IMG/VR virus record: IMGVR_UViG_3300021254_001514
Span: 1 to 64,000 of that record
Source: a virus
Taxonomy: Duplodnaviria; Caudoviricetes
Reading direction: 5' to 3' (one strand)
DNA: 64,000 nt
Part shown: piece after piece, positions 1-54,148 of the stretch
Layout of the letters: each line of letters begins with the position of its first letter
How positions within the stretch are numbered: the first letter of the stretch is position 1
The notes under the pieces: model-generated
The model's database searches: none
Told to the model about the DNA's origin: nothing
The model's input: only the letters and a program-made list of their open reading frames with translations
Position numbers and translations under genes: made by a program

Positions 1-843
1 TGCTTTTCAAATGCTTTGAAGATGATGTCTGTAAAGTATAAAGATGAGTTTCAGTCAATAAACGAACTATTAAAAAAGATTGCAAAGGCAGAGGCTGCGG
101 CTGAGCGAGCGCGCCAGCAAGTTTTAAATGCAACAAAAGAAATTGAAAAGAATCAAAAGAAAAAGGTATTTGCATCAGATAAGTTAAAGGATGCAGAATT
201 TCTTGGAGAAAACTCAACACTTTTAATTGTTGAGGGTGACAGCGCGATGGGTGGTATGGCTCAAGCAAGAGATTATACCAAATATGGACTTTTAGCAATC
301 CGCGGAAAAATTATTAACTGTTTATCTAATCCTGAAGAAAAGATTTTCCAAAATGAAGAGATAAAACTTTTACTTAGTGCTATGAATATTACACCAGGTA
401 AATATAATGCTTCTAAATTAAGATATGGAAAGATTGCTATTTGTACTGATGCTGACTCAGATGGAGGGCATATAGGACTTTTAATTATGGCGGCGCTTGC
501 ATACCTTGCGCCAGATTTTATTAAAGAAGGTCGACTTTGCTGGCTTCGTTCTCCATTATATATAGTTAATAATAAGGGTAAAGAAACTTACTATTTTACA
601 GATGAGGAGTTTAATAAAGTTAGAAAAACTATTAAAGGCACAGTAACAAGAGCAAAAGGATTAGGCGAATTACCGGCAGAAACAGCTCACGCTTCTATGT
701 TTACTGAAGAATATCAAAGAATGGAGATCTTAGAATATAACAGTAGCGCGATTGATTTACTTTATGATTTAATGGGTGAGGATGTAGAGCCAAGACGTAA
801 TTTTATAATGAAGAAAGTAGATTTTAGTAAGGTGAGGGAATAA
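1..843 (+). CDS. gyrB: Type IIA topoisomerase B subunit (GyrB/ParE-like), C-terminal TOPRIM part; 5'-truncated by the window edge
   Basis: Frame is open from base 1. TOPRIM motifs IVEGDSA, LAIRGKIIN, CTDADSDGGHI and KGLGE, with a C-terminal LMGEDVEPRRNFI. Confidence 0.9.
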   Translation, partial: CFSNALKMMSVKYKDEFQSINELLKKIAKAEAAAERARQQVLNATKEIEKNQKKKVFASDKLKDAEFLGENSTLLIVEGDSAMGGMAQARDYTKYGLLAIRGKIINCLSNPEEKIFQNEEIKLLLSAMNITPGKYNASKLRYGKIAICTDADSDGGHIGLLIMAALAYLAPDFIKEGRLCWLRSPLYIVNNKGKETYYFTDEEFNKVRKTIKGTVTRAKGLGELPAETAHASMFTEEYQRMEILEYNSSAIDLLYDLMGEDVEPRRNFIMKKVDFSKVRE

Positions 844-1587
844 ATGAGTATTGTTTTATATAATGAAGATTGTTTGGAAACTTTAAAAAACATTCCAGAC
901 AAATCAATAAATTTAATTTTGTCTGATTTACCCTATGGTATGACTAAAATGGAATGGGATAAACAGTTACCTTTTCCTATTTTATGGAAAGAGTATGAAA
1001 GAGTTCTAGCGCCAAGTGGTAATATTGTATTATTTTCTTCTGGGTTATTTACGATAGATTTAATTAATTCTAATCGTAAGTTATTTAAATATAAGTTAAT
1101 TTGGAAGAAAAATGTACCAACTGGAATGAGTAGCGCAAAAACAAGACCAATGAAATATTATGAAGAAATTTGTATTTTTAATAAAGGTCACGCTACTTAT
1201 AATCCAATTATGAAACCAAGAGAAGGCAAGGGAAAAGATTGTTATAAGTATGAACATTACTTTGGTAAAAGTAACCATTTGGATTTGGAAAAGCAACCAA
1301 AAAAATATGACCCCAACTGGGTACAACCTTCTGATATATTAGAATTTAAAACAGTACCTAATCGTAATGGGAAATTACATCCAACTCAAAAACCAGTAGA
1401 GCTATTAAAATGGTTAATTCATACCTATTCTAATGAAGATGAAACAGTTTTAGATAATTGTATGGGTTCTGGTAGCACAGGAGAAGCTTGCATAGAATTA
1501 AATCGTAATTTTATTGGTATAGAAATAGACCCTAAATATTTTGAAATAGCAAAAAATAGATTGCAAGTAGGGGACACAAATGAATAA
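844..1587 (+). CDS. Orphan amino-DNA methyltransferase (N6-A/N4-C, beta class)
   Basis: Motif IV DLPYG near the N-terminus, HPTQKP, and motif I VLDNCMGSGSTG near the C-terminus. Confidence 0.9.
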   Translation: MSIVLYNEDCLETLKNIPDKSINLILSDLPYGMTKMEWDKQLPFPILWKEYERVLAPSGNIVLFSSGLFTIDLINSNRKLFKYKLIWKKNVPTGMSSAKTRPMKYYEEICIFNKGHATYNPIMKPREGKGKDCYKYEHYFGKSNHLDLEKQPKKYDPNWVQPSDILEFKTVPNRNGKLHPTQKPVELLKWLIHTYSNEDETVLDNCMGSGSTGEACIELNRNFIGIEIDPKYFEIAKNRLQVGDTNE

Positions 1588-1589
1588 AT

Positions 1590-1618
1590 TTGACTTTTAT
1601 TAAAAATTTTAGTATAAT
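1590..1618 (+). promoter_or_regulatory. Sigma-A-like promoter of the topoisomerase A gene
   Basis: TTGACT-17-TATAAT. Confidence 0.75.
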
Positions 1619-1651
1619 TAATTCATAAAATAAAAGTAAAAAGAGGGAAAA

Positions 1652-3997
1652 ATGGCTAATTTACAAAACACAATTAATGATAGTTTTGTTCAATATGCGG
1701 GAGCGGTTCTACAGAACCGCGCCCTTATTGATGTGCGTGATGGATTAAAACCTTCAGCACGCCAAATCTTTTATTCAATGTTAACTCATAAGCTTGTAAG
1801 TAAGAACCCCCATAAAAAGACAATGAACGCTGTTGGTATGGCCATGGCTGATTTTTATATTCATGGTGATTCAAGTTGTGAAGGCGTTATAATGCGTGCG
1901 GGGCAGCCTTTTGCTATGAGATACCCTCTTATAGATATAAAAGGTAACGCTGGGTCACTTATTGCAAGTGGTAACTGGGCGGCGCCTCGTTATACAGAAT
2001 CACGTCTTTCAAAAATTATGGATGTTATGTTTAAAGATATAGAAAAAAACACAATATCCGAATGGCGTGATTCGTATGATAACACAAAGCAATATCCAGC
2101 AGTATTGCCTTCAAAGGGTTTTTATAATATTGTTAATGGCTCGACGGGGATAGGTGTTGGTATGGCTTCGTCTATACCTCAATTTAATATAAAAGAATTG
2201 AACAATGCACTTATTTATTTAATTGACCATCCTGATTGTGATTTTGAAGATATATACTGTGCGCCCGATTTTGCAACAGGCGCGATCTTATATAACGAAT
2301 CTCAAGTAAAACAATCAATGAAGGACGGGACTGGTTTTGCTTGTAAATTAAGAAGTGTTGTTGATTTTGATAGTAAGGAACGCTGTTTTATTGTAACGGA
2401 GATTCCTTATGGTGTTTATACTAATACCATTTGTGGAGAACTGGAAGATATTATTAATGGAGAAGAAAATCCTGGAATTGAAAGATTTAATGATTTAACA
2501 GGTAAATCTCCTTTAATTAAAATTTATCTTACAAAAAAAGCAAATCCAGATAAAGTTTTGAAGTATATTTTTAAAAATACTTCTCTTCAATCTTATTTTG
2601 GTATTAACTTTACAATGCTTGATATGGGAAGATTTCCTAGAGTTTTTACTTGGAAAGAAATGTTGCAAGCTCATATTGACCATGAAAAAGTTGTATATAG
2701 AAGAGGTTTTGAGTTTGACCTAAAGAAAATAGAAGATAGGATTCATATAATTGATGGATTACTTATTTGTCTTGCTTCTATAGAGGAAGTTGTTCAAACT
2801 ATTAAATCTTCTTCTTCGGCGGCGAAAGCAGCCATAGTTTTACAAGAAAAGTTTTTACTTGATTCTGTTCAGGCTGAAAATGTTTTAAATATGAAACTTA
2901 GTCGTTTGGCTCATCTTGAAGTAGAAAAATTAAAAGAAGAGCGCGCGAATCTTCAAAAAGAAGCTTCTCAGATTCATTTAATTTTGGATGATGAAGAACT
3001 TTTTAAGAACGAGCTTAAGAAAGGATGGGAAGAAGTCTCTAAAAAATTTGGTGACGAAAGACGAACAAAAGTTATAGATAGTTTAGATAATGATTCAGAT
3101 GAGCCGATTGAAGTAAAACAGCTTTCAATTTCATTTTCTAATAATGATGCAATATATATATCTGAAACAAGTAATTTGTATACGCAAAAGCGTAATGGGA
3201 CTGGTACAAAATTTAAGCTTGATAAAGGAGAATATATTGTAGACAGTCTTGTTGGAGAAAATACTGATACAATTCTCTTCTTTACTTCTCATGGTAACTA
3301 TTACCACACTAAAATCAATGATTTTACACTTAACGAGAAGCAGTATTTATCCAACTATGTAACAATGTTACCTTACGAGCATATTGTCGCGGCAGCAATA
3401 ACCTCAAAAAAAGATTCAAAACCATATATAATTTTTGTTACTAAGAATGGTCTTGTGAAGAAATCAAGTTTAGAGGAATATAATTTAAGCCGCAGAGTGG
3501 GCGCGACCGCCATTAAATTGGATAAGGATGACAAAATTGTTTCTGTTTTATTTACAGATAACGAAAATATTGGAATCGTTTCTAAGTCTGGCAATTTTAT
3601 AATGATTACCACTTCTGACATTAAACCTATTGGTAGAGTTACTCGTGGGGTAATAGGTATAAAATTGAATACGGGTGATGAAGTAGTTAGCTCTATGGTC
3701 ATACCCAAAAACACAACAGAAATCATTTCGATTTCTACCGATGGTTACATCAAACGTAGCGCACTTTCTGAATTTAAAATTACAGGGCGCGCTACGAAAG
3801 GAGTAAAAATTCAAAAAACTGATGAATTATGCGACTTTTTGCCAATTAACAATAATGAGGACATATTGGTTGTATCCAACTCTTCTCAAATTAGATTAAA
3901 ACTTTCAGATATTCCTCTTATAGGGCGGGGTACTCAGGGAGTTAAATCTATTAAGTTGTCTGAAAATTCAAAAATCTTAAAATTGAACAGCTTATAA
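1652..3997 (+). CDS. gyrA: Type IIA topoisomerase A subunit (GyrA/ParC-like) with beta-pinwheel CTD
   Basis: DVRDGLKP, IHGDSS and catalytic AAPRYTE. C-terminal blade repeats (GRVTRGVIGIKL, GRATKGVKI, GRGTQGVKSIKL). Confidence 0.9.
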   Translation: MANLQNTINDSFVQYAGAVLQNRALIDVRDGLKPSARQIFYSMLTHKLVSKNPHKKTMNAVGMAMADFYIHGDSSCEGVIMRAGQPFAMRYPLIDIKGNAGSLIASGNWAAPRYTESRLSKIMDVMFKDIEKNTISEWRDSYDNTKQYPAVLPSKGFYNIVNGSTGIGVGMASSIPQFNIKELNNALIYLIDHPDCDFEDIYCAPDFATGAILYNESQVKQSMKDGTGFACKLRSVVDFDSKERCFIVTEIPYGVYTNTICGELEDIINGEENPGIERFNDLTGKSPLIKIYLTKKANPDKVLKYIFKNTSLQSYFGINFTMLDMGRFPRVFTWKEMLQAHIDHEKVVYRRGFEFDLKKIEDRIHIIDGLLICLASIEEVVQTIKSSSSAAKAAIVLQEKFLLDSVQAENVLNMKLSRLAHLEVEKLKEERANLQKEASQIHLILDDEELFKNELKKGWEEVSKKFGDERRTKVIDSLDNDSDEPIEVKQLSISFSNNDAIYISETSNLYTQKRNGTGTKFKLDKGEYIVDSLVGENTDTILFFTSHGNYYHTKINDFTLNEKQYLSNYVTMLPYEHIVAAAITSKKDSKPYIIFVTKNGLVKKSSLEEYNLSRRVGATAIKLDKDDKIVSVLFTDNENIGIVSKSGNFIMITTSDIKPIGRVTRGVIGIKLNTGDEVVSSMVIPKNTTEIISISTDGYIKRSALSEFKITGRATKGVKIQKTDELCDFLPINNNEDILVVSNSSQIRLKLSDIPLIGRGTQGVKSIKLSENSKILKLNSL

Positions 3998-4000
3998 AAT

Positions 4001-4029
4001 TTGCAAAAAGTTCAAATTTCAGTTATACT
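4001..4029 (+). promoter_or_regulatory. Sigma-A-like promoter
   Basis: TTGCAA-17-TATACT. Confidence 0.65.
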
Positions 4030-4123
4030 ATTTATAGAAAGTTAAGGAAAACGCTTTCAAAACTGGCCGTCCAGTTAAAAAAATAAAATAAAATAAAAAA
4101 GACGGATAAAAAGGAGAAAAAAA

Positions 4124-4378
4124 ATGAGACTTAAGGAAAAGACACAGGAAGCATTTGATTTTATCAAGAACCATGGTGGTAGCTGCACTACAGCAGAAAT
4201 TAAGGACGGTCTTGGACTGGAGAAGATTGCATCTGTAACAGGACGTGTTAATAGCCTTGTTAAGAATGAGCTGGCTACGACTGAAGATGGTGGTAAGACT
4301 GAGGATGGTAAGAAGATTACTATCGTAACCCTGACAGAGAAGGGTCAGAACTATGTACCTTCTGATGACGAAGAGTAA
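4124..4378 (+). CDS. Small winged-helix DNA-binding protein
   Basis: AAGGAG RBS. wHTH-like pattern TTAEIKDGLG...VTGRVNSLVKNEL...VTLTEKG. Confidence 0.6.
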   Translation: MRLKEKTQEAFDFIKNHGGSCTTAEIKDGLGLEKIASVTGRVNSLVKNELATTEDGGKTEDGKKITIVTLTEKGQNYVPSDDEE

Positions 4379-4394
4379 TTAGTTAAAATAATCG

Positions 4395-4430
4395 TGGTGG
4401 ACTTAAATTTTTCTAAATTTAAGTCCACTT
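4395..4430 (+). terminator. Hairpin, probable intrinsic terminator
   Basis: GTGGACTTAAATTT..AAATTTAAGTCCAC followed by TTT. Confidence 0.5.
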
Positions 4431-4494
4431 TCCCCTCAAACAAAGTAAAAAAGAATATGATAAAAATGAAAAGTAAAAATAAAAGGAGAAAGAA

Positions 4495-5421
4495 ATGTAT
4501 AGAAAAGCAGATAATAGAGTAAGAATTGAGGGTATCCTTGCAGAAAGCGATCTTAAATATACTTCTTATACAAAGAATGGCGTTCCTGTCGACGCTATCG
4601 GTGGAAGTATTAAAGTCCTTGTAGAACAGGTTATTAATGACAAGCCCGTAAGTGTAGAAATTCCTGTTTATATGTTTTCTTCTAAACTTACAAAGGCCGG
4701 TGGAATTAATCCTTCTTATGAATCTATTGAGAAGGTAATGAATGAATTTGTTTCTATTGCTGCCGCGGGTAGTTCTGCGCAGGCAGATAGAATTCGTATC
4801 ACCAACGGTGACATTAGAATGAATGAGTTTATTGGGCAGAATGGTCAGCTTGTATCTCAGCCTAGAATTCATGCTTCTTTTGTTAGTCGTGCGGTAGGTG
4901 ATTTTAAACCTGAAGCCACTTTTAACATCGAATTTATGGTGTCTAGCATCAATCAGGTGCTGGATAAGGATGGTGTAGAGCTTGATCCTCCCAAACTTTG
5001 CGTCCAGACGATTGTTCCGCAGTACACCGCCGAATCTGCGGCAGCCATGAATGTCGATGTAATACCTCTATATGCAACGGCTCCCGGCGTGATTGATGCC
5101 ATTTCCAATTATTGGGAGGCGGGCGCTTGTTATCGTGCAAATGGGCGTCTTAACTTTTCTTCTCGCGTCGAGGAAGTCGTTGCCGAAGGAGGTTTCGGTG
5201 AGCCGCAGCGTTCAACCAGAACCATTAATGTGAGTGAGTTTATTATTACTGGTGGATCGGAAGCTCCTCTTGAAGATGAACTTGCTTTTAATCTTGAAGA
5301 TATTAAGGCTGGTATGGCAGCGCGCAAGGCTCGTATTGAGGAAAGAAAGACAAGTAAAGAAGGTGCTAAGCAGACTCCTGCTAAGGAAACTTCTAAGGGA
5401 AAACTTGATCTTGGCTTCTAA
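4495..5421 (+). CDS. Putative single-stranded DNA-binding protein
   Basis: OB-fold-like start (RVRIEGIL), charged tail ending LDLGF, and position directly before a Sak4-like ATPase. Inferred. Confidence 0.55.
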   Translation: MYRKADNRVRIEGILAESDLKYTSYTKNGVPVDAIGGSIKVLVEQVINDKPVSVEIPVYMFSSKLTKAGGINPSYESIEKVMNEFVSIAAAGSSAQADRIRITNGDIRMNEFIGQNGQLVSQPRIHASFVSRAVGDFKPEATFNIEFMVSSINQVLDKDGVELDPPKLCVQTIVPQYTAESAAAMNVDVIPLYATAPGVIDAISNYWEAGACYRANGRLNFSSRVEEVVAEGGFGEPQRSTRTINVSEFIITGGSEAPLEDELAFNLEDIKAGMAARKARIEERKTSKEGAKQTPAKETSKGKLDLGF

Positions 5422-5437
5422 TTAAGGGGGTGACATA

Positions 5438-6406
5438 ATGGCTATAGATATTTTAAATATTCAGCCTAGTGTTATCTCTCGTGACTTAAAAGGAAAATAT
5501 GTTCTTATCTACGGACAACCTAAAGTTGGTAAGACATCTTTTGCCGCTAAATTCAAGAAAAATCTTATTCTTGCTTTTGAAATGGGTACCAATGCACTTG
5601 ACGGTGTATTGGTACAACCCATTCAGAAATGGGCGGATTTAAAATTAGTTTTACGTCAGTTAGATAATGCTAAAGCACATGAGCTGTATGACACAATTAC
5701 TATTGACACGGCAAGTATCGCCTATGATTTATGCGAACAGTTTATATGTCAACAGAATGGTGTACAAAAAATTAGTGATATTGCCTGGGGTCAGGGTTAT
5801 AGTGCGGTAAAGAAAGAGTTTGAAAACACTTTACGAAAAATAACCATGCTTGGGTATGGACTAATTCTTATTGCTCACAGCGAAACTCGTAAAGAAACTA
5901 TTGGAGATTCTGAAAAAGAATTTTATAGTCCAGCTCTTAATAAGAGATGCTATGAAATTTGTAATAGACTGGTTGATGTAATCGGTTATATAGCTTTGGA
6001 ATGGGATGAAGATGGTAATGCACATCGTTATCTCTATACTCGACAAACTCCATACGTAATGGCTGGTAGTCGTTTTAAATATTTGGCACCAAAAATTGAG
6101 TTTGGTTATCAAAATCTGGTAGACGCTATCGCAGAAGCTCTTGAAAAGAGTGAAACTCTTGATGGAGCAAAAGTTGTTGACAAAGCGTTAACAGCAAATG
6201 TTGAAGAAAAAATTGATTTCAATACCGTCCGTGCGGAAGCTCAAGAATTATGGAAAAAGCTTATTGAAAAAGATGAGTCAAATGCAGATACGATTCTAAA
6301 GAAAATCGAGATTATTATGGGTCATCGAATGAAGCTGTCAGAATTTACAGAGGACCAGGCAGATTTAATGTATTTATGCGTCCTGGAAATGAGGGACATG
6401 GTATAA
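5438..6406 (+). CDS. Sak4-like (AAA_24) ATPase / ssDNA annealing protein
   Basis: IYGQPKVGKTS Walker A, TITIDT Walker B, WGQGY, LIAHS. Confidence 0.8.
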   Translation: MAIDILNIQPSVISRDLKGKYVLIYGQPKVGKTSFAAKFKKNLILAFEMGTNALDGVLVQPIQKWADLKLVLRQLDNAKAHELYDTITIDTASIAYDLCEQFICQQNGVQKISDIAWGQGYSAVKKEFENTLRKITMLGYGLILIAHSETRKETIGDSEKEFYSPALNKRCYEICNRLVDVIGYIALEWDEDGNAHRYLYTRQTPYVMAGSRFKYLAPKIEFGYQNLVDAIAEALEKSETLDGAKVVDKALTANVEEKIDFNTVRAEAQELWKKLIEKDESNADTILKKIEIIMGHRMKLSEFTEDQADLMYLCVLEMRDMV

Positions 6407-6451
6407 GCTTAACGGAAAGGCGAAGTTTTAAATACTTCGTCTTTTCTTAAT

Positions 6452-6480: not shown

Positions 6481-6513
6481 TATTTTAGAAAAAAGTTAAA
6501 GAAAGGAGAGATT

Positions 6514-7057: not shown

Positions 7058-8611
7058 ATGATTGATAAATCTACTAATCTTCAAATTTTTGGATGTTTAA
7101 TGAAACATCCTCAGTATTTAAGTGAATCTGATAAATATAATCTAACACCAGACGACTTCTACTCCAGATTTGAAACTTATATTTTTGTAGCAATAGATAG
7201 CTTATATAGAAACGGCGCAGAGCATATTCAGCCTATTGATGTAGAAAATTATTTAAGTACAAACGAGAATGCTAAATTAGTTTTTAAAGAAGAAAATGGT
7301 ATCGAATATCTACAGGATGCAGATTTTTTATCAGATGAAAAAAATTTTTCTTATTATTATAAGAAATTAAAAAAGTTTAATCTTTTAACTTCCTTTCAAA
7401 AGAAAGGCTTTGATATAAGTGATTTTTATGTAGAGAATCCTATTAAAGATAAGGACTTTGAAGTAAATAATAAATTTGAAAAGCTTGAAATAGAAGATAT
7501 TTTAACAGGTATTAAACAAAAACTTTTAGGAATTGAAAGAAGCTTCATTCAAAACGATACAACTGAAACAATAAATGTTTTTAACGGAATAGAAGATATA
7601 TTAGATGAAGCAACCTTGCAAACAGATGTGGGTATGCCAATTCAAGGAGAAATTTTTAATGAAGTGCTTGCTGGTGCGCGCAGGGGAACATTTGTATTAA
7701 GGTCTGGCTCTAGTGGTGTTAGTAAAACTCGTCAGGCTGTTGGTGATGCCTGTTACCTAGCTTTTCCTTTTAGATATGAAGAAAATGAAGATAAATGGGT
7801 ACAGGTTGGTAGTGGAGAAAAAGTTTTATTTATTGCAACTGAACAAAATACAAAAGAAATTCAGAAAATGATTTTAGCTTATTTAACCGGTTTTAATGAG
7901 ACTAAATTTCGTTATGGCGGTTTCACAGAAAAAGAACAGGTTATTATAAAACAGGCTTTATCAGTTCTTGAGGCTTATCAAGATAACTTTTATATAGTTA
8001 GGATGCCAAATCCAACTATAGAATTAGTTAAAACAATAGTAAGAGAAAATGTCTTACTTCATGATATAGGGTATGTGTTCTATGACTATATTTTTATTTG
8101 TCCAAGTTTACTAAATGAATTTAAAGGGTTTAATTTAAGAAACGACGAAGTTTTGTTAATGTTTTCTACTGCTCTGAAGGACTTAGCTGTAGAATTAAAT
8201 GTTTTTGTGATGAGTTCTACTCAAGTAAATGCAAATGCAGATAATTCTTCTAATATAAGAAATGAAGGCTCGATTGCGGGATCTCGTTCAATAATAAATA
8301 AAGCAGATGTTGGTGCGATAATGGCGCGGCCAACAAAAGAAGAAATGGAAATGTTAGAGAACGATGGTGGTATCTCATTTTATCCTAATATAGTAACAGA
8401 TATTTATAAAGTTCGTAGTGGAGAATGGAACCAAGTTAGAATTTGGAGTGATGTAAACTTAGGAAATTTGAGAAAAAAAGATTTGTTTGTTACTAATTCA
8501 AGAATGGAAGTTTTGAATGTTGGTACAAGTTATAACTACCAAACTGATTGGGATGATGAGCGATTAATGGATTATAGAGAACAGCTTAAAAAGTTAAACG
8601 AAGGAAGATAA
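7058..8611 (+). CDS. DnaB-like replicative helicase
   Basis: Walker A variant SGSSGVSKT, LFIATEQ, FYDYI, SSTQVN, GSRSIINKAD. Confidence 0.85.
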   Translation: MIDKSTNLQIFGCLMKHPQYLSESDKYNLTPDDFYSRFETYIFVAIDSLYRNGAEHIQPIDVENYLSTNENAKLVFKEENGIEYLQDADFLSDEKNFSYYYKKLKKFNLLTSFQKKGFDISDFYVENPIKDKDFEVNNKFEKLEIEDILTGIKQKLLGIERSFIQNDTTETINVFNGIEDILDEATLQTDVGMPIQGEIFNEVLAGARRGTFVLRSGSSGVSKTRQAVGDACYLAFPFRYEENEDKWVQVGSGEKVLFIATEQNTKEIQKMILAYLTGFNETKFRYGGFTEKEQVIIKQALSVLEAYQDNFYIVRMPNPTIELVKTIVRENVLLHDIGYVFYDYIFICPSLLNEFKGFNLRNDEVLLMFSTALKDLAVELNVFVMSSTQVNANADNSSNIRNEGSIAGSRSIINKADVGAIMARPTKEEMEMLENDGGISFYPNIVTDIYKVRSGEWNQVRIWSDVNLGNLRKKDLFVTNSRMEVLNVGTSYNYQTDWDDERLMDYREQLKKLNEGR

Positions 8612-8612
8612 A

Positions 8613-9659
8613 ATGATAAATTATCAAGAAATAATAGAAAATCTTGAATTAGACGGAGTAAAAAATCTTCTTAACTCACTCGATATTCCATACAAAGATA
8701 CAGAAAATGCCCTTATAATGCCAACTGTTTGTCATAACGCTGAAGCCGAGAGCGCATCTTGGAAACTTTATTACTATAAAAACACTCACTGTTTTTATTG
8801 CTTCACAGAGGATGGAGCGATGTCTATTTTTAAATTTCTTCAACATTTTTATGAGGCAAGAGGCGTTATTTACGACTGGTATCAAGATATATATAAGGTA
8901 GTAATAGACTGTTCTTCTTCAAGAAAAATAAATCAGAAAAAACACTATACCTCAGTAAAAGAAGATTATTTACAAAAAAAAGATAGAAAAGAATTAGTTT
9001 CCTATCCAAGTGGAGTCTTGGAGGTTTTCGTTCATTATTATCCTATTGAGTGGCTGAATGATAATATTTCTAAAGAAAGTATGGATAAATATGGTATTCT
9101 ATATTCTATAACCCAAAATAAGATTATAATTCCTCATTTTGATATAAATAATAGATTGGTTGGAATAAGAGGGCGCGCTTTAAACGAATGGGATATAGAA
9201 AATTTTGGTAAATATATGCCAGTTCAAATCGAAGGCAAATGGTATAGTCATCCTTTAAGTTTAAATTTGTATGGATTGAATAAGAATAAAGAAAATATAA
9301 AAAAATATAGGCGTGTTTATGTATTTGAAGCAGAAAAATCAGTACTTCAGTTAGAAGATTTTAGCGCACCTAATTGTTCCGTCGCGGTCTGCGGTAGTAA
9401 TTTTAATAAAATCCAAATGGATTTACTTATGAGATACTGCGCACCTTATGAAGTTATTCTGTGTTTTGATAGAGAAGAATTAGAAGGTGAAGATAAATAT
9501 TTTTTGAAACTATGGAATATATGTAAGAAATATAATAAATATTGTAATATGAGTTTTGTCTATGATAGAAGAGGACTTTCAAAAATGAAAGATTCTCCTA
9601 GTGATAATGGTGAAGAAATTTTTAAAAAATTAATTCAAGAAAGGGTAATGGTAAAATGA
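8613..9659 (+). CDS. DNA primase
   Basis: N-terminal Zn region (CHN...FYCFT), IIIPHFD...VGIRGR, TOPRIM FEAEKS and CFDRE. Confidence 0.85.
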   Translation: MINYQEIIENLELDGVKNLLNSLDIPYKDTENALIMPTVCHNAEAESASWKLYYYKNTHCFYCFTEDGAMSIFKFLQHFYEARGVIYDWYQDIYKVVIDCSSSRKINQKKHYTSVKEDYLQKKDRKELVSYPSGVLEVFVHYYPIEWLNDNISKESMDKYGILYSITQNKIIIPHFDINNRLVGIRGRALNEWDIENFGKYMPVQIEGKWYSHPLSLNLYGLNKNKENIKKYRRVYVFEAEKSVLQLEDFSAPNCSVAVCGSNFNKIQMDLLMRYCAPYEVILCFDREELEGEDKYFLKLWNICKKYNKYCNMSFVYDRRGLSKMKDSPSDNGEEIFKKLIQERVMVK

Positions 9660-17358: not shown

Positions 17359-17571
17359 ATGAAAGTGATTTTATATACAACACACTGTCCAAGATGTAAT
17401 GTATTGGCGGCTAAATTACAAGAAAAAGAGATTGAATATCAGGAAGTTACTGATGTAAAGAAAATGTTAGAAATGGGAATTACTACCGCGCCGAAGCTAG
17501 AAGTAGAAGGTAATCCATTAATGGATTTTAAAGAAGCTGTTGAGTGGGTTAGAAAATTTGGAGGAAGATAA
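17359..17571 (+). CDS. nrdH: Glutaredoxin/NrdH-like redoxin
   Basis: LYTTHCPRC and TAPKL; directly upstream of nrdD. Confidence 0.8.
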   Translation: MKVILYTTHCPRCNVLAAKLQEKEIEYQEVTDVKKMLEMGITTAPKLEVEGNPLMDFKEAVEWVRKFGGR

Positions 17572-19493: not shown

Positions 19494-19729
19494 TGAACAT
19501 AATTGATAAACCAGTTAAAACAAAAATTTTAATGCCTGAGGTGCCGGCAAAGAGAGTTCGGCACCTCGTAGAGGTAATAAAAAATATGGATGACAATGAT
19601 CCAGTTACCTTACAATTTTTATTAGTTGCGCTTTTCCCTAATGTTTGGAATAATATAAAACAATACGCTACAGACTGCTATACAAACGGATATATTCAAG
19701 GACTTGAGGATGCAAAAAATGAGAATTAA
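19493..19729 (+). CDS. Hypothetical protein
   Basis: Coupled ORF between nrdD and nrdG. Confidence 0.65.
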   Translation: MNIIDKPVKTKILMPEVPAKRVRHLVEVIKNMDDNDPVTLQFLLVALFPNVWNNIKQYATDCYTNGYIQGLEDAKNEN

Positions 19730-46921: not shown

Positions 46922-48271
46922 TTATTTCTTATAACGAGCTAAAATTTCTTCTACACCGGTTCTAGGAACGTCAGTTGGTAAAATACCTCCTGTTCTTTCC
47001 GGCGTTAATGCAGCGGAGTTGGTCTTTTTCAGTTCATAAGCAAGATGCATATCAAGCTCCTCTGGAGTAAAATCATCAAATTTTTCGCGGTAAGATTCAA
47101 GCAGATCTTCGGATAATTTGTTGTTGTACTCGGCGACTACAGCCTCTTTTGACTGGGTCTCGATATTCTTCTTATATTCTTTTAAAGATTCGTTCTCTGC
47201 TGTAAGTGTTGCAATATTTTCCTGAGCTACACTGTAGCTAGATTGAACTTCTTGCACTTCTGTTTTTAAAGTAGAGTTCTCTTTAGTCAACTCTTCAATT
47301 TTGTTGCTAAATTCTGCACAATCAACGGCATTTTTCTCTGCATTAGTTAAATCTTCTTTTACTAATTCATATGTATCTCCGTTTAGTGCGCGAAGAGTAT
47401 CAAGAGTCTTCTTCTCATTTTCAGTTACGTCTACTATATAAACCGTAACTCTTTCACCAAGAGTCACTGAATCATCTTCATCATTTTTAGTGTAAAATAC
47501 TCTTTCAAAATTGCCAGTTTCATAATTAACAACAAGAGCATAATCATCAAAGACACTGCAAATACCATAAGTAACTGTCCAGTTATTATCAGCATTATAC
47601 TCTTCGTTTAGTAATTCCCAAATAGCATCATGTTTCTGGCTATCAGAAAGCTTAAAGTTTAACTTAGGCATTTCCGATCCTCCTTCATAACTATATTCTT
47701 TAATTTTTTGAATAGCTTCCTCAATAGTTTTCTGAAGAGAAAAGAAAGAAGCACCTTCAAAACAAGGTTCAACCTTATCTCCTAAAACCTGAAGTCCTAA
47801 GAAACTACCATGGTCGAAAACAACGTACTTCATTCCATTTATAATAGACATATGGTACTGAAGAGAGGGTTCATAAAGTTCCATTGATAAACTCTTCCCT
47901 ACTATTTTTGAAGCTTCAGGATATAAAGCAGAGTATATATATACATCAGTACAAGCATATACTCTTTCTACTCCATCTTCATCAATATGACTTTCCCAAG
48001 AAAAATTGTTGTTCTCAGGAACAATACCATAAATCCTACCTTCTGCTCTTGAATTACCGTGATCTGTATAATCACCGTCCCCATAAATACCTTTTACGGG
48101 TACATAAGGAAGAGTTGTAATGAGTTCATTAGCAAATTCTTCTGTGATATAAGTACCGTTTCTGTTTTCGTTTCGGTAAAAAATTCTGCATCGAGCCTTT
48201 GTTAGAATGTCATTTACTTTTTCAAAATCTCCATAAATACTAATGGGAAACTCTAACATTTCTTTATTCAT
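46922..48271 (-). CDS. Prohead protease-scaffold fusion
   Basis: N-terminal protease-like domain (NRNGTYIT, SLSMEL, LGDKVEPCF) plus an acidic coiled-coil C-terminus. Confidence 0.75.
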   Translation of the reverse strand: MNKEMLEFPISIYGDFEKVNDILTKARCRIFYRNENRNGTYITEEFANELITTLPYVPVKGIYGDGDYTDHGNSRAEGRIYGIVPENNNFSWESHIDEDGVERVYACTDVYIYSALYPEASKIVGKSLSMELYEPSLQYHMSIINGMKYVVFDHGSFLGLQVLGDKVEPCFEGASFFSLQKTIEEAIQKIKEYSYEGGSEMPKLNFKLSDSQKHDAIWELLNEEYNADNNWTVTYGICSVFDDYALVVNYETGNFERVFYTKNDEDDSVTLGERVTVYIVDVTENEKKTLDTLRALNGDTYELVKEDLTNAEKNAVDCAEFSNKIEELTKENSTLKTEVQEVQSSYSVAQENIATLTAENESLKEYKKNIETQSKEAVVAEYNNKLSEDLLESYREKFDDFTPEELDMHLAYELKKTNSAALTPERTGGILPTDVPRTGVEEILARYKK

Positions 48272-49745
48272 TATCAGAGCCTCCTTGACGATCTAATGAT
48301 TGCTCATTTTGAATCGTTTTTTCAGCTTTTTCTTCTATTGGTTTTTCAGGCGCGCCAACATCATTTGATGACTCAGTATAAGAAGAATATAAAGGAATTA
48401 ATTTTTCCCTTAAATCAAGAACATCATTCTCAAGAGCCTTTAGGTTGATAAGTTGCTGTTGATTGATACCCATCGCCGCAGACACATATAAGAAACTATA
48501 ACCGCTTTGCGCGAGCTTTAATGCATCTTTTATTATATCACTTTGAGTATATAAACTTACTGGTAAAACTAAATATTTAAAATCAATATTACTATTACCA
48601 AATAAGAAGTTAGTAATATAAGTTATAAAACGGGCGTACTTCGTAGCAAGAATCATCATTATAGAAATGTCATTCTTAATAGATGTTCCTAAAGCCTGAG
48701 AACCCGTCGGTGCGAATATCTGAGCACTTACACCTGCTTCAGAATATACATTTTGAAGCATTTTTTCTATTGATGTTGACACATTATCTGCTGACGTTTT
48801 AGAAATAATAGCATCTACATCAGCATAAGTTGTCAAAATAGAAAGATTAGGATTCTTCTTCATCATATTAACGGCGCCACGATGCATCTCGCGCGCCTCG
48901 TCTGGCTCAAACAGTAGCTGGCCATCATTTAAATGAGGAATTTTCTGTACTATAATCTTTCTAATTTCTTCAAGCTCTCTTTCTCTTTCAGTATCCACCG
49001 CATCATCATATTGTATTGTATTAGGAATAATATCAACAAACAATGGACGATGGTCATCAAAGAAAGAAAAGCATACGCCAATATCTGCGGGAAGTATTAA
49101 CCACGAAGTATCTGTTTTTCCTTTACTGTATTTCTTATAAAAAGAAGATACTATAGAAGGATAGGTTTTTAACGCAGTATCTTTTATTGCGGAATCAAAA
49201 ATAGAATCAAAATAACTAACATCAAATTCTACAATATCATTCCCGTAAATATCTCTAAAACGAGAGCGAGCATAACCAGAAGGAAGATCAAATATAACTA
49301 ATTTCTCTTTATTAAGAGTTTGAATTATACCATAATAACATCCATCAATAAGCGCACGGATAGACATTCTTGTCATTAATTCTACTAAGTTGGCTTTATC
49401 AAGATATTTTACCGCCGCGTAATACCTTTTTTCGATATGTGAACTGGAGAGTTTCTGACCGAATTTTGGATTAGGTATCAATAAACCTGAATATGTTAAA
49501 AGCGACGCGTAGTATAAAACTAATTTCTTATAAAGACCATTTCTTTCATAGAAATAACGGGAAAGCCTTTGTATTTCTACTGGATCGGTAGAACCTAATA
49601 TTCTTTCCACCTCTTCAAAACTATAATCTTTTTGGAAAGTCGTAATCTGCCATCTACCACCACTATTCCAAGAAGATTCGTTTGAAGCAACCATATCATC
49701 CATTGCTTTTTTGAAGGTAGCTATGTCAACAGTTTTTTCTTTCAC
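48264..49745 (-). CDS. Portal protein
   Basis: Position after the terminase gene, 493 aa, with a GCYYG stem pattern. Confidence 0.8.
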   Translation of the reverse strand: MKEKTVDIATFKKAMDDMVASNESSWNSGGRWQITTFQKDYSFEEVERILGSTDPVEIQRLSRYFYERNGLYKKLVLYYASLLTYSGLLIPNPKFGQKLSSSHIEKRYYAAVKYLDKANLVELMTRMSIRALIDGCYYGIIQTLNKEKLVIFDLPSGYARSRFRDIYGNDIVEFDVSYFDSIFDSAIKDTALKTYPSIVSSFYKKYSKGKTDTSWLILPADIGVCFSFFDDHRPLFVDIIPNTIQYDDAVDTERERELEEIRKIIVQKIPHLNDGQLLFEPDEAREMHRGAVNMMKKNPNLSILTTYADVDAIISKTSADNVSTSIEKMLQNVYSEAGVSAQIFAPTGSQALGTSIKNDISIMMILATKYARFITYITNFLFGNSNIDFKYLVLPVSLYTQSDIIKDALKLAQSGYSFLYVSAAMGINQQQLINLKALENDVLDLREKLIPLYSSYTESSNDVGAPEKPIEEKAEKTIQNEQSLDRQGGSDNE

Positions 49746-49750
49746 TGACT

Positions 49751-51559
49751 TTATGCCCCTCCTGTATAAAAAATTAACGTCCGTCCACTAAAAGCAGATT
49801 TTCTTTTTTGCTTTTGGTAAGCTTCTTCTTCTAACTCTTTAATTCTCCACTGCCCGTAAGCAAAAGCAGAATATTTATCTTTAGGAAAACGTGAGTTAAT
49901 TTGTTCCAAAGTTATGTCTGTGCCGGTTCTTTTAAGTCTTAAATTTGCCATCTCATCAAACAACTTTGTAGTAAGTTCATGAGGAAGTAAACGCTTTACT
50001 CGTTTTTCTACAGACATTTTTGAACCGACCTTTGACGCAAGTAGTTTTGCCCGTGCTTCCTGCTCTGTGATTAAAAATCTTACCATGCCGCTGTTTAGTC
50101 TTGTATAAGCATTCCCATGAATTTTTGGATTCAAAACTCCAGTAGCTTTCATGGAGTATAATATCATAGATGCATCCTTGGGTTGAATTTTTTTATAATC
50201 ATCATTATTGAAAAATCCATACGCGGGAAGAACATTTCCAAATATATCTGTTTGAGTCCTAATCATTTCATCGGCAAGTCCAATACCCAAGCCGTTGCAG
50301 TCAATCACGACCTCGCGCGGATTATATCTTTCAATAAGAAGCTTTAAATCTATAGCTTGCTGATTAAAAGTTTTAGTTTCCGCTTGTCTACCCAATACCT
50401 CTAAATTAACAAGAGTAGAATAATATTTATTATCCCTTATGTTAACTCTGAAGATACAAGCCACTGTCTGGTCTGACAATCTACCTACGTCTACTGATAT
50501 TAAGTAAAAAACATTAGGTTCTCCTCTAAACTTTTGCTTCAATTCCGGATTTTTTAAGCGTCGATATTTTTCCATCTTATCAAGTCTGAACCAGGACTCT
50601 TCTGATCCACCAAGCCAAACTCCCATATACTCACTAGCAAAAGTGCTTTCATTATAAGAAGGAGATAGTTTTAAATCCCTAACATACTTTCCATCAATAA
50701 GACCGTGCATTACGGGGATTCTATAGTCAAGACCTATGCAAAAATTTCTTTTAGGATCAATGATAGCTTTTTCAAAAGTATCTATTAAAGCCTCATAGGC
50801 ATAAGAAGACTTCATCCCCGCCGAAGTAGCATAGATAACCTGTGTGTTTATATTTTCATAAGGGTTAACAAGTCCATTAGCCATTCTTCGAGACACATTC
50901 ATCTGAGGTAAAATAACCTCACTAATCATCTGACCATCCTGGTCTCTAACCTCATCTATTAATGTAGCGTGCGTACGAATACCACGGTCAGAATTAATCG
51001 CACCACCAATAGATAAACGCGACCCATTCTTAAAATAAAGGTCGCAATAATCTTTACCGAAATTCGCATGAGGCGCGCCGCCTACTTCTTCCAATTCTTT
51101 CTTTAATAAAGGCCATATGCGCCAAATCTCTTCAATTTTTTGTCTTGATATTTTTGCTGCCTGATTTTTATTAGGAGCCACTATAGAGCCAACATGATTA
51201 GGAATAAACATACACTGCATATATTTACCTAATATAGAAAGAAAGGTTTTTGAAGTAGCACGCGCGGCAGTAATATAAAGAGTAGTATATCTCATGCAGG
51301 CGCGCAGAAAAACTCTTTGATAAGGAAAAAGAGTAAAACTTGAATTAACCGGTTGAATAGTGTCTAGGTAAATGTCCGGATAAGCAGAAAAAATTTGCCA
51401 GTATTCCTGTAACAAATTTTCATTTTTCTCTAACCACTCGGGAGTTATAATAACACCCTTTTCCAACTCTATGCCCTGTCTATATATTTTCTCTTTTACG
51501 TTAAAAGAAAAAGGTTTAGGCTCGCGCAGTTTAATAATATTACTTTCCTCATTGTTCAT
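49751..51559 (-). CDS. Terminase large subunit
   Basis: Walker A variant AARATSKT, Walker B LIDEVRD, nuclease ISVDVGR, C-terminal KDKYSA. Confidence 0.88.
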   Translation of the reverse strand: MNNEESNIIKLREPKPFSFNVKEKIYRQGIELEKGVIITPEWLEKNENLLQEYWQIFSAYPDIYLDTIQPVNSSFTLFPYQRVFLRACMRYTTLYITAARATSKTFLSILGKYMQCMFIPNHVGSIVAPNKNQAAKISRQKIEEIWRIWPLLKKELEEVGGAPHANFGKDYCDLYFKNGSRLSIGGAINSDRGIRTHATLIDEVRDQDGQMISEVILPQMNVSRRMANGLVNPYENINTQVIYATSAGMKSSYAYEALIDTFEKAIIDPKRNFCIGLDYRIPVMHGLIDGKYVRDLKLSPSYNESTFASEYMGVWLGGSEESWFRLDKMEKYRRLKNPELKQKFRGEPNVFYLISVDVGRLSDQTVACIFRVNIRDNKYYSTLVNLEVLGRQAETKTFNQQAIDLKLLIERYNPREVVIDCNGLGIGLADEMIRTQTDIFGNVLPAYGFFNNDDYKKIQPKDASMILYSMKATGVLNPKIHGNAYTRLNSGMVRFLITEQEARAKLLASKVGSKMSVEKRVKRLLPHELTTKLFDEMANLRLKRTGTDITLEQINSRFPKDKYSAFAYGQWRIKELEEEAYQKQKRKSAFSGRTLIFYTGGA

Positions 51560-52532
51560 CTATATCTACCTCAAACTCTTCTTCCTCTCCCTCAACTATA
51601 TAGCCCGCATTATCATACTCGTCAAGATCAAACTCTTTTTCTAACTCAAACACATTCTCTTCCAATTCTGTAGCATTTTGAAGAGATTGAAGTCTTTGTC
51701 CAATTTCATCACCAATTCCGCCTTCATTTATATAAAGCCTCTGGTTATAATTCTCAATATTCTTTAGAGTTTCATCAATAACATCTCTCGTTACATTATC
51801 ATAAAATTTATTTATGTGTCCTCTCTTCTCAAGCCACATACCTACTTCTGCGAAAGAATCAAAGTCGACCGCATTCTTTGTATTTTTTGGAGTAAATTCC
51901 GCAATTTTAACTAATCTATCATAGCTTGAAAGAAGTTTATCAACATCTTTATCTCCAGCACGAATCTTACTATCAATCTCTAAAGATAACTTACAAATCT
52001 TTCGCGCCTGATCTATAGGGAGCGCGCCATTAACTGACTGGGACACCAACAGTCCCTTATATAAATCTTCAAGATAATATAATTCTTCTTCTGAGTAATT
52101 CTCTCCCCAGGTCTTTCTAAGAACTTCAAGTTCATGTTCATGGACAAGCGGAATCTCATCCTCTAACATTCCTACTTCTCTTAACTTCTTATATTGTTTA
52201 AAATAATCTCCCCATCCAATAGACTTATAATCATCAGAAGAAAAAACATTAGCATAAATAGGCCAGGTATTCTCTTCGCCATTTAACTCTGCTAACCGCT
52301 CCCATTCCTTTACAATAAAAGGAATATCACTCCATTGACAAACTTTATCTATAACTTCCCAGTCAAAATTGTTCTCGCGCAAAAAGTCGCAAATACAATC
52401 ATTACAAACTGGTAAGACTCCTTCGGGATAGAAAATGGAATGAGTCTTAGCAAAATTATCCCCCAAATTCCCGCATTTCACGCATTTCTTAAATAGCGCG
52501 GCCTTCTTCGGAATTTTTGGTACTATCGCCAT
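51549..52532 (-). CDS. Zn-finger protein upstream of the terminase (terminase small subunit candidate)
   Basis: CVKCG...LPVCNDC. Function inferred from position. Confidence 0.5.
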   Translation of the reverse strand: MAIVPKIPKKAALFKKCVKCGNLGDNFAKTHSIFYPEGVLPVCNDCICDFLRENNFDWEVIDKVCQWSDIPFIVKEWERLAELNGEENTWPIYANVFSSDDYKSIGWGDYFKQYKKLREVGMLEDEIPLVHEHELEVLRKTWGENYSEEELYYLEDLYKGLLVSQSVNGALPIDQARKICKLSLEIDSKIRAGDKDVDKLLSSYDRLVKIAEFTPKNTKNAVDFDSFAEVGMWLEKRGHINKFYDNVTRDVIDETLKNIENYNQRLYINEGGIGDEIGQRLQSLQNATELEENVFELEKEFDLDEYDNAGYIVEGEEEEFEVDIDEQ

Positions 52533-52785
52533 CTATAACTCCTCCCTTATCAGAATTAGCCTTATTTAAAATTTTCAGCAATTCCTTTTTCTTTTTTCTT
52601 GATAGCTCATTATATTTCTTCATTATATCTTCAAAGATCTCGTCAAAATCTCTTGGTAGAGATTTTCCTTCACTATCTTTCTCTTCTTTTACCAGGCGGG
52701 CGCCCGTTAAAGAAGCGAGTCCTACAAAAATTTCAGGCTGTTTAATCTTTGAAATTTCAATCATAAACTTATCATTTAATTCCAT
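52489..52785 (-). CDS. Hypothetical protein
   Basis: GGAG RBS; coupled ORF. Confidence 0.65.
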   Translation of the reverse strand: MELNDKFMIEISKIKQPEIFVGLASLTGARLVKEEKDSEGKSLPRDFDEIFEDIMKKYNELSRKKKKELLKILNKANSDKGGVIDGDSTKNSEEGRAI

Positions 52786-52789
52786 TCCT

Positions 52790-54148
52790 CTACTCCTTAA
52801 CCTTAATTCTCTTTATTTTCTCGCACTTCTTACATCGAGGAGAAAATCCATCGCTAGACCTAGCTCTTTTAACAAAATTAATCTCATCCATAAGTAGAAC
52901 TCTGCCGCAATCTTTACACTTTTTGAAGTTTTCTGGAAAGAAAATATTCTCCAAGACTTCTCTATGTCTGCGCGCGGTCTGCGCAATTCCCTCTAAACAT
53001 TTCTTACAATATAAAGTAGAAATATAATTGGCTCTATACTTCTTCCCATATTTTTGATTAATAAAATTTACAATATCTTGATTCTGTACCTTTTGAATTT
53101 TTAAATCTAATATATCTTCTAAAATAGGATCTAAGTTACTAAGTTTCCTATAAACCATGGCGGCGCGCATAAATAAGCCCCTATTAGAATAAATAGAATC
53201 TTCAGGTTCTTCTAACTCTTCCCACATACTAAAAAGTGCATATAGGTGATCCGTATTTGTAAAATCAAAATACTTTTTTGTACCCGCCGCAGTATAAGCC
53301 AGCTTTTCTGGCTTCTCTACCTGTTCCTTTCTTTCATATTGACTTCCATCCCATAAAATTTTACTAATACTAATTAGCTCTTCCTCTCTAAAATCTTCGG
53401 GTTCCGGAAACCTATCCTCTCTAAAAATCTTTTCTCCTAATTCTCCTTTGAAGGGAAGTCCAATCGGTCTAACTAAAATTTCTTCACCAAAAGTCGGCCC
53501 GATTCCCTCATTAAAATTAAAAGTAGGTCTACTTAAATGAGTCTCATTAAAACTATCCCTATACGTATATTGCTCTCTTCTCATTTCAACTAGTGAATGC
53601 TTGAGTTTTAAATAGTTATAAGGAGAAGTTTGTTCAGAAAGACTCTTAATATTTTGTTGTTCTTCTGGAGAAAATTTGTCTAAGAGAGTTTGACGAGGTG
53701 GATTTTTTCGCTTATTATGCGCCAGGTCGTAAAAATTGATTAGAAGTTCTGTTTTGTCGATTTCTTTCCAGAGTTGTTCAAGAGCAGATAGAATGTGCGG
53801 TGGGGCGTTTTTGCGCGCCTCTGAACGAGAAAAGACTTCTCGTGAGATTTTTGTCGGAGGGTCGGATGGCCCTTTTAGCATTGTTTCAGAAAAGTTTGGA
53901 TTTTCGATTAAGGCATCGAGAGATTCGATTTTATTGGTGTCCCAAGTTCCGTATTTAGTTTCGAGTTCCAAGCCTTCTTGGCGGCCGTTTAGACCAGTTT
54001 CAGAATCTTTTCCCCATAAAATATATTTGGCCATTATATCAAGTTCGGACTCGTTGGGTGTAAAACGAATTTTTTGGAGGTAGTCTTGGATAAAGGTAAG
54101 ACGTTCTGAACGAGTTTGAAGTTGGAAGTTTAGTTGTAAGCGATTCAT
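52790..54148 (-). CDS. Hypothetical protein with a sigma-4/HTH-like segment and C-terminal Zn ribbon (regulator candidate)
   Basis: ILEDILDLKIQKVQNQDIVNFINQKYGKKYRANYISTL, then CKKC/CKDCG/CKKC. Confidence 0.5.
   Translation of the reverse strand: MNRLQLNFQLQTRSERLTFIQDYLQKIRFTPNESELDIMAKYILWGKDSETGLNGRQEGLELETKYGTWDTNKIESLDALIENPNFSETMLKGPSDPPTKISREVFSRSEARKNAPPHILSALEQLWKEIDKTELLINFYDLAHNKRKNPPRQTLLDKFSPEEQQNIKSLSEQTSPYNYLKLKHSLVEMRREQYTYRDSFNETHLSRPTFNFNEGIGPTFGEEILVRPIGLPFKGELGEKIFREDRFPEPEDFREEELISISKILWDGSQYERKEQVEKPEKLAYTAAGTKKYFDFTNTDHLYALFSMWEELEEPEDSIYSNRGLFMRAAMVYRKLSNLDPILEDILDLKIQKVQNQDIVNFINQKYGKKYRANYISTLYCKKCLEGIAQTARRHREVLENIFFPENFKKCKDCGRVLLMDEINFVKRARSSDGFSPRCKKCEKIKRIKVKE

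Follow-up and report, generated by a model that had tools for sequence, protein, structure and literature searches.

A 64,000-nucleotide stretch of viral DNA (positions 1 to 64,000 of IMG/VR record IMGVR_UViG_3300021254_001514; here called the window) carries an excess of short tracts in which G and C alternate. The linear virus record from which the window is taken measures 82,852 bp, with a CheckV completeness of 71%; the window covers its first 64 kb and has a GC content of 35%. We found that the alternating G/C excess in this phage is real, that its true unit is an alternating tract of 5 to 8 nucleotides (nt) with the core GCGCG/CGCGC and not a GCGC restriction or methylation site, and that it is a DNA-level signature of a whole family of uncultivated 90- to 127-kb gut siphophages. 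We favor, with a probability of roughly 40%, the explanation that a context-dependent creation or fixation bias, acting in the phage or in its hosts, generates the tracts.

The initial annotation had reported an overuse of GCGC and CGCG from hand counts over bases 1 to 5400 (approximately 22 GCGC, 14 CGCG, 3 GGCC, and 3 CCGG), and a recount returned identical numbers (22, 14, 3, and 3). The whole window contains 214 GCGC, 125 CGCG, 41 GGCC, and 73 CCGG. Compared to a base-composition null for the 82.9-kb record, GCGC was present at 3.4-fold, CGCG at 2.0-fold, GGCC at 0.85-fold, and CCGG at 1.14-fold the expected number. A maximal-order Markov null gave 1.36-fold for GCGC (z 6.5); this value is modest because the GCG/CGC trinucleotide, the top overrepresented trinucleotide (1.48-fold), already holds most of the excess.

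Synonymous codons were then shuffled with the protein sequence and the per-gene codon usage kept fixed (35 genes, 50.8 kb). With 163 GCGC against 72.2 expected and 106 CGCG against 48.4 expected (z 9.8), the two words were the first and second of all 256 tetranucleotides, while GGCC (0.91-fold) and CCGG (1.18-fold) were not comparably raised and GCGCGC was found 31 times against 3.3 expected. The z-score of GCGC, which according to the initial annotation should drop to background under such a codon-preserving check if the bias were spurious, was 12.3. Both ranks were retained when the dinucleotides at codon junctions were also fixed (GCGC, 1.37-fold, z 8.3; CGCG, 1.65-fold, z 7.8). The two shuffles rule out a codon or amino acid artifact.

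In line with the earlier claim that codons are bent to form the motif, codon choice depended on the neighboring bases, and did so in all three codon phases. The alanine codon GCG made up 39% of the choices before C versus 8 to 19% elsewhere, the glycine codon GGC 47% before GC versus 10 to 17%, and the arginine codon CGC 23% after G versus 3 to 6% after A or T. The examples cited for such bending are present (GGCGCGCGCC at 9947 and GCGCGC at 10832, 11049, and 11139). These and other representative tracts are as follows.

9947-9956, plus strand: tract GGCGCGCGCC in the RecJ-like gene (9872-11602), the GGC-GCG-CGC (DGAR) example
10832-10837, plus strand: tract GCGCGC in the RecJ-like gene, the KARQ example
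11049-11055, plus strand: tract GCGCGCG in the RecJ-like gene, the GSARN example
11139, plus strand: tract GCGCGC in the RecJ-like gene
26285-26292, no strand assigned: octamer palindrome GGCGCGCC, one of 7 copies
51072-51082, minus strand: tract GGCGCGCCGCC inside the large-terminase gene (49751-51559)

The motif had been given as GCGC(G). Its overuse was confirmed, but the enriched unit is the alternating tract rather than the 4-mer palindrome. When flanked by A or T, GCGC was not enriched (1.00- to 1.01-fold) and CGCG was depleted (0.33- to 0.58-fold). The excess started at 5 nt: under the synonymous-codon shuffle, GCGCG was found at 3.5- to 4.2-fold, CGCGC at 3.7- to 4.7-fold, and GCGCGC at 4.5- to 9.5-fold, and both strands of the window together contained 142 matches to GCGCG, where shuffles that preserve dinucleotides gave 18.5 ± 5.3. 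An alternating run was extended by one more base with a probability of approximately 0.22 to 0.25 at 2 to 3 nt and of 0.44 to 0.55 at 4 to 6 nt; past 8 nt, the probability dropped steeply. Among the hexamers made only of G and C, those with more alternating steps were more enriched (Spearman 0.755, P 1e-7), with 0.28-fold for CCCCCC and 0.49-fold for GGGCCC versus 4.5-fold for both CGCGCG and GCGCGC. No flanking consensus of the tracts was found, except that A is disfavored before and T after them; T is the rarest base following GCGCG (9%). A general excess of dinucleotide repeats was ruled out, since TGTGT (0.88-fold) and AGAGA (1.16-fold) were not raised; ATATA was mildly raised (1.46-fold).

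The excess is spread over 254 islands (approximately 3 per kb), which lie in genes of both orientations and in spacers and continue to the end of the 82.9-kb record. Their spacing was Poisson-like (coefficient of variation [CV], 1.01 to 1.08; 1.01 over the big-gene part), which rules out a regular spacing, and no correlation of the islands with local GC was found. GCGCG and CGCGC were nearly equal on the plus strands of 13 genomes (for example, 90 versus 87 and 312 versus 289), and the lean to the coding strand was just 53:47. Core genes (2.06-fold), partly shared genes (2.07-fold), and genome-specific genes (1.71-fold) were all enriched. In the noncoding DNA of four clades, GCGCG/CGCGC was the most frequent class of G/C-only 5-mers, at 2.5 to 3.8 times the mean of the others; in the noncoding 4-mers of this genome alone, RNA genes lift all G/C-only words. 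Strand symmetry, Poisson-like spacing, and presence in all gene classes and in noncoding DNA together point to a property of double-stranded DNA and not of translation or mRNA.

At the level of single genes, the density of GCGC/CGCG ranged from 0 to 14.7 per kb, with the maximum in the RNA-ligase gene (67771-68997 of the record). The Sak4-like AAA_24 gene (5438-6406), a core gene with 35.8% GC, has none versus approximately 5 expected.

The wider bias that had been proposed does include the minus-strand genes. The intergenic GCGCCCGGGCGC element, which had been counted with it, belongs instead to a GCGCCCGGGCGC/CCCGGG repeat family that is separate from the dispersed alternating G/C excess. 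All 14 copies of CCCGGG in the 82.9-kb record lie at 54437-64723 (54437-63795 inside the window and 64723 past its end), and none is found in the other 72 kb. They are located in a 10-kb small-gene array, mostly as GCCCGGGC(GC) palindromes between genes.

Besides the window, IMG/VR yielded 80 related loci (terminase 49 to 83% identical), which come from ruminant-gut and other gut metagenomes. In nearly all of the 54 loci of at least 13 kb, GCGC was found at 2.4 to 6.0 times and CGCG at 1.4 to 4.7 times the base-composition expectation; a distant locus (L057) was weaker (1.7 and 1.3 times). When the coding DNA from 58 related loci was pooled (468 kb), GCGC (1.90-fold, z 36) and CGCG (1.68-fold, z 28) again ranked first and second, as they did in three complete relatives of 116 to 121 kb (z 15 to 22). 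The bias of this phage is comparatively mild: it is exceeded in each of the three relatives analyzed over their whole genomes, and clade 1 and genome G001 are more strongly biased than clade 2 and this phage. GyrA homologues number more than 7,000 at an E value of ≤1e-50, the best 120 of them being 71 to 100% identical.

In nine control sequences, the bias was absent or far weaker. The phage controls were Enterococcus phage VRE9_4, SPbeta, Bacillus phage C30-3, MT836163 and MT836002 (both unannotated human-faecal phage scaffolds), and Phass-1, which showed a weak bias. The plasmid controls were the Butyrivibrio megaplasmid pCY360 and the Ruminococcus albus megaplasmid pRUMAL01, and the ninth control consisted of the other contigs of a "Methanobrevibacter" metagenome bin that holds a related phage contig. 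An excess of CCGG (1.6 to 2.5 times base composition), not of GCGC, was observed in pCY360 (L090), pRUMAL01 (L091), and contigs C2 and C3 of bin G030. The related contig (L084, or G030 contig C1; 138,782 bp) is the largest of the bin labeled Methanobrevibacter and a more distant relative (GyrA 49% identical); it has a C5 methylase (C1:47565-48503) approximately 5 kb upstream of gyrA. Further related contigs sit in Bacteroidales and Prevotella bins. Because the other contigs of the L084/G030 bin lack the bias, the related phage contigs seem to have been assigned to these metagenome bins in error.

As a rule, phages rid their DNA of short palindromes. This background, which the initial annotation had invoked, holds for other palindromes of this phage but not for GCGC and CGCG, which are enriched. 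GATC was found at 0.49- to 0.56-fold in this phage and at 0.18- to 0.21-fold in two relatives; CAATTG, ATCGAT, and CTGCAG were missing, GATATC was present once and GAATTC three times, versus 7 to 20 expected; and GGACC/GGTCC and GAAGAC were reduced to 0.14-fold and 0.18-fold, respectively. Since many palindromes are strongly avoided, the phage DNA is evidently exposed to type II restriction, and this argues against a blanket base modification.

To follow how the tracts evolve, we used whole-genome alignments of two subclades (six genomes each, 2 to 8% divergence), in which singleton differences were polarized by the other five genomes and, in clade 1, also by an outgroup. Both are subclades of one gut-virus data set and not this phage's own clade. 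Loss rates of GCGC/CGCG and of other G/C-only words did not differ (5.6% versus 5.6% and 7.8% versus 7.8%), and cytosines flanked by G/C underwent C>T changes more often (1.61%) than those flanked by A/T (1.25%). The inner C of GCGC (1.95%) behaved like that of GCG not followed by C (2.01%) and like other CpG contexts (1.6 to 2.2%). From the equal loss rates and equal C>T rates, we conclude that there is neither a methylation hot spot nor a protection from mutation via duplex stability; the latter is also ruled out by the higher mutability of the G/C-flanked cytosines.

Furthermore, the excess is not a passive relic of a single ancestor, because synonymous sites between clades are saturated and few words are positionally shared. 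Between the major clades, 0.37 to 0.40 of the four-fold degenerate sites were identical versus 0.32 to 0.34 by chance, and 17 to 23% of this phage's words were found in the same alignment column of a distant relative. Such an ancestor would have needed at least 5 times the present density.

The same alignments gave a hint of a creation bias for GCGCG. Transitions from A/T to G/C that complete GCGCG occurred at 6 of 95 opportunities (6.3%), compared to 2.7% for the remaining transitions of this kind (odds ratio 2.4, P 0.044), and in clade 1 alone, polarized by the outgroup, the odds ratio was 4.1 (P 0.01). An unfiltered odds ratio of 5 to 7.5 was discarded as inflated by the rooting of one tip. 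An old internal branch with a balanced 23:23 was considered as a trace of purifying selection and rejected, the outgroup revealing two branches of opposite direction. Differences between reads and the record had low power: 2 of the 32 examined (among 40 listed of 237) lay at GCGC/CGCG words versus 0.56 expected.

Two further observations concern the alignments themselves. In the youngest clade 1 tips (G018, G024, and G017), 295 changes from G/C to A/T were counted versus 141 from A/T to G/C, while longer branches were at approximately 1:1. Many site patterns of clade 1 conflict with any single tree, indicating frequent recombination.

According to the explanation we favor, a GCGC or CGCG that is already present would be extended to a longer alternating tract wherever protein coding permits. 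The driving force would be a context-dependent bias of substitution or fixation on double-stranded DNA, for which biased mismatch correction in replication or recombination is the most plausible route. This bias could be located in the phage lineage or in its hosts, could differ in strength by clade, and may act only weakly or not at all in some subclades today. The tract lacks a sharp definition, a set length, and an orientation, is placed at random, and is found in sequence of every kind; it therefore looks like the signature of a process and not like a recognition site. Thus, we infer that the tracts are created or fixed by a bias, with an enzyme behind it, and not selected for a function. 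The force acted throughout the history of the family and is weak now in the two best-sampled subclades.

Several results weigh against a creation or fixation bias. At the word level, losses exceeded gains (134:34 in clade 1 and 170:47 in clade 2), while other G/C-only words were balanced or gaining (185 losses to 203 gains and 328 to 427), and site-level 5-mers showed 33 losses to 6 gains. Given this net loss in both well-sampled subclades, the excess is not maintained by the substitutions now occurring in them. In three smaller 20-kb sets with denser sampling, losses to gains were 15:18, 5:4, and 13:5. The creation estimate is based on 6 events, its whole signal comes from clade 1 (the odds ratio of clade 2 is 1.0), and transitions completing GCGCG did not differ significantly from those creating other G/C-only words (P 0.28). 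In two genomes with 85% amino acid identity (G018 and G029), 65% of the alternating words were shared versus 42% of other GC-rich words; this difference is not explained by tip rates alone and could reflect selection instead. SPbeta has a homologous replication module yet no bias. Finally, a phage-encoded C5 methylase, Vsr, or HhH-GPD glycosylase was ruled out as the cause, as none was found, leaving the bias with no responsible enzyme among these. The C5 methylase family PF00145 was absent from this record and from 29 of 29 relatives, Vsr (PF03852) from all 23 phage genomes searched (this record and 22 complete relatives), and the HhH-GPD glycosylase from the 22 complete relatives.

The consequences differ with the cause. 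Despite the purging of palindromes, alternating G/C tracts persist at 4 to 8 times expectation in a large and abundant family of uncultivated phages. If a repair or replication bias is responsible, the family would offer a clean natural system in which context-dependent substitution in viruses can be measured, and the tracts would be a compositional marker for the family, and perhaps for its hosts, in metagenomes. Were selection responsible, the tracts would be a dispersed DNA signal of a new type for phages.

Selection of the tracts as a dispersed functional DNA element is a credible but doubtful alternative. Candidate functions are a bidirectional Chi-like attenuator of a host AddAB/RexAB nuclease, a target of an abundant DNA-binding protein, and a duplex clamp in AT-rich DNA that is kept highly supercoiled by the phage's own gyrase. 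The excess is indeed kept in every clade despite the saturated synonymous sites, the higher sharing between G018 and G029 fits selection, the palindromic hexamers carry GCGCG on both strands, and the family encodes GyrB and GyrA. However, the tracts have no defined flanks, vary in length between 5 and 8 nt, and show neither polarity nor a spacing constraint (CV approximately 1). Their loss rate matches that of other GC-rich words, and G/C-flanked cytosines mutate more, not less, than A/T-flanked ones. The frequency spectrum also gave no sign of selection: the ratio of losses to gains did not shift between singletons (33:11) and high-frequency derived changes (23:10; P 0.62). The tracts may nevertheless be a dispersed protein-binding or functional motif.

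Known Chi sites of Bacillota (AGCGG, GAAGCGG, and GCGCGTG; table in PMC5959072) lend the Chi-like candidate some support, as they too are short, GC rich, and built around GCG, their overrepresentation being due to the action of a DNA-processing enzyme, and the lactococcal/streptococcal Chi starts with GCGCG. But Chi is a defined, oriented, nonpalindromic word, and here there is no fixed extension and no orientation bias, GCGCG being about as frequent as CGCGC in the 13 genomes. In addition, GCGCGTG is missing from one strand of the record and present once on the other, in line with the rarity of T after GCGCG. A polar Chi-like skew or the GCGCGTG Chi itself is thereby ruled out. We regard it as unlikely that the tracts are a selected genome-wide signal, either bidirectional and Chi-like or a "self" mark, that is read by a host or phage machine and kept despite AT-biased mutation.

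It is also rather improbable that the excess is a nonequilibrium legacy, left by a strong past or host-limited generating process and now decaying in the sampled lineages. The net loss on nearly all polarized branches of the two subclades, with other G/C-only words balanced or gaining, speaks for such a legacy; the loss rates look neutral, and the strength of the bias differs between clades. Against it, a single ancestral origin is excluded by the near-saturated four-fold sites and by the approximately 80% of words that are not positionally shared, and two of the denser 20-kb samples were balanced (15:18 and 5:4). The process must have acted repeatedly or for long in all lineages, and therefore a legacy amounts to an episodic variant of the creation or fixation bias.

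It is very unlikely that the enrichment comes from Vsr-type repair combined with a host C5 methylase that targets GCGC, CGCG, or both. In Escherichia coli, very-short-patch repair by Dcm/Vsr leaves a footprint in which CCWGG is raised and the T:G products are lowered, and it is thus a known example of how a methylated palindrome can become more frequent through repair. The searches for phage genes leave host enzymes as candidates, and CpG cytosines did undergo C>T changes approximately 1.55 times more often than other cytosines. This increase was seen in all four CpG contexts, however, and there was no hot spot at the cytosine of GCGC that would be methylated. The initial annotation had suggested a methylation-linked repair bias and, as a check, a look for depletion of GTGC/GCAC and similar one-step variants. 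No such specific depletion was detected in the 468 kb of pooled coding DNA: the deamination products GTGC (0.95) and GCAC (0.86) were close to the transversion neighbors GAGC (0.90) and GCTC (1.00), one-step variants of GCGC were at 0.83- to 0.97-fold if the changed base was A/T and at 1.0- to 1.25-fold if it was G/C, and transition and transversion variants did not differ. Together with the unenriched A/T-flanked GCGC (approximately 1.00-fold), the depleted A/T-flanked CGCG, and a phage family lacking Vsr (0/23) and C5 methylase (0/29) genes, these data speak against the suggestion.

Methylase-linked models have been proposed for HIP1 (GCGATCGC) and other cyanobacterial highly iterated palindromes (Elhai 2015, PMC4390886), and the label "HIP1-like" had been applied to the window. 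It is apt in part. Like HIP1, the word enriched here is short, GC rich, and self-complementary, it is many-fold overrepresented inside genes through bent codons (here after codon correction), it arises by substitution, and it is common to a lineage. HIP1 is one fixed octamer, whereas here the tract is variable, without fixed flanks, and 4-mer palindromes alone are not enriched. The one octamer palindrome that stands out, GGCGCGCC, has 7 copies in the 82.9-kb record (23386, 26285, 48349, 51072, 56112, 58954, and 68535) versus approximately 0.5 expected, and these are a minor part of the excess. HIP1 is also often tied to cognate orphan methylases (CGATCG, GATC), whereas among the 29 relatives PF00145 and PF01555 were found in none; and its carrier is a cellular lineage, here a phage family.

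The methylase encoded in the window (844-1587) had been proposed as the possible cause. It matched PF01555 (E 4.5e-33), with a motif IV of the (D/N)PP(Y/F) type (SDLPYG) at residues 27 to 32, N-terminal to the SAM-binding motif I of the FxGxG type (NCMGSGSTG) near residue 205. Its best solved matches were M.RsrI, DpnA, MboIIA, and CcrM (E 1e-13 to 1e-19), while N4-cytosine enzymes reached E 1e-5 to 1e-7 at best, and so it is predicted to be an N6-adenine-type beta-class enzyme. PF01555 was absent from all 29 related phage genomes (22 of them complete), identifying the gene as an accessory insert between gyrB and gyrA. That this orphan methylase drives the bias, for which the sole point is its presence in the same genome, can be dismissed: the enzyme is of the adenine type and GCGC has no adenine, the examined relatives without PF01555 have the bias (three of them a stronger one), and the gene itself has 29% GC, 2 GCGC, and 0 CGCG. 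An orphan methylase beside a skewed motif is thus no evidence of a link, and here the comparison with relatives refuted the link directly. The methylase gene contains neither GATC nor GANTC.

The genes of the window that were assigned a function form a replication block on the plus strand and a virion block on the minus strand, followed by the small-gene array, which begins at 54.4 kb.

16-843, plus strand: GyrB, replication block
844-1587, plus strand: N6/N4-type methylase (PF01555), between gyrB and gyrA
1652-3997, plus strand: GyrA, replication block
5438-6406, plus strand: Sak4-like ATPase (AAA_24), replication block
7058-8611, plus strand: DnaB, replication block
8613-9659, plus strand: primase, replication block
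9872-11602, plus strand: RecJ-like nuclease, replication block
12059-16030, plus strand: DnaE-type polymerase, replication block
17571-19493, plus strand: NrdD, replication block
19704-20252, plus strand: probable NrdD-activating Fe-S protein, replication block
21258-22202, plus strand: dUTPase-like protein, replication block
22144-22827, plus strand: family-2 glycosyltransferase, replication block
22839-23564, plus strand: RuvC-like resolvase, replication block
25855-31413, minus strand: 1852-amino-acid (aa) tail protein with an endopeptidase domain, virion block
31429-32772, minus strand: Dit-like tail protein, virion block
32870-40381, minus strand: probable tape measure, a 2503-aa open reading frame assigned by size and position only
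48264-49745, minus strand: portal, virion block
49751-51559, minus strand: large terminase, virion block

The replication module is syntenic with that of Bacillus phage SPbeta. The closest cultured relatives of the terminase (35 to 40% identity) belong to phages of Geobacillus, Enterococcus, Bacillus, and Lactococcus, and a GGAGG-like ribosome-binding site (strong Shine-Dalgarno) precedes 29 of the 35 confident genes. On the basis of these two features, the host is likely a member of the Bacillota (Firmicutes). A tblastn search with the tail protein for a host gave no matches, a gyrA scan of genomes returned just related phage contigs, whose bins are labeled Bacteroidales, Prevotella, and Methanobrevibacter, and the scanned proteins of the 71%-complete record included no endolysin. 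Near-identical DNA was found exclusively in gut metagenome runs, with labels mostly bovine or sheep.

A 104-kb contig carries an identical GyrA, and another relative has 95% GyrA identity. The dUTPase/dCTP-deaminase-like protein (21258-22202) has 314 aa, with a long N-terminal extension; the overlapping gene for the family-2 glycosyltransferase (22144-22827), which comes next as the replication block closes, has no counterpart in three relatives. The regions 4495-5421 and 16030-17172 encode proteins that are conserved in the family and have no assigned function. Lastly, three octamers were strand biased in the 82.9-kb record, with more copies on the plus strand than on the other: CACTTTCT (18 versus 2), TCACTTTC (15 versus 2), and CTTGACAA (12 versus 3). 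They may be promoter or regulatory words.

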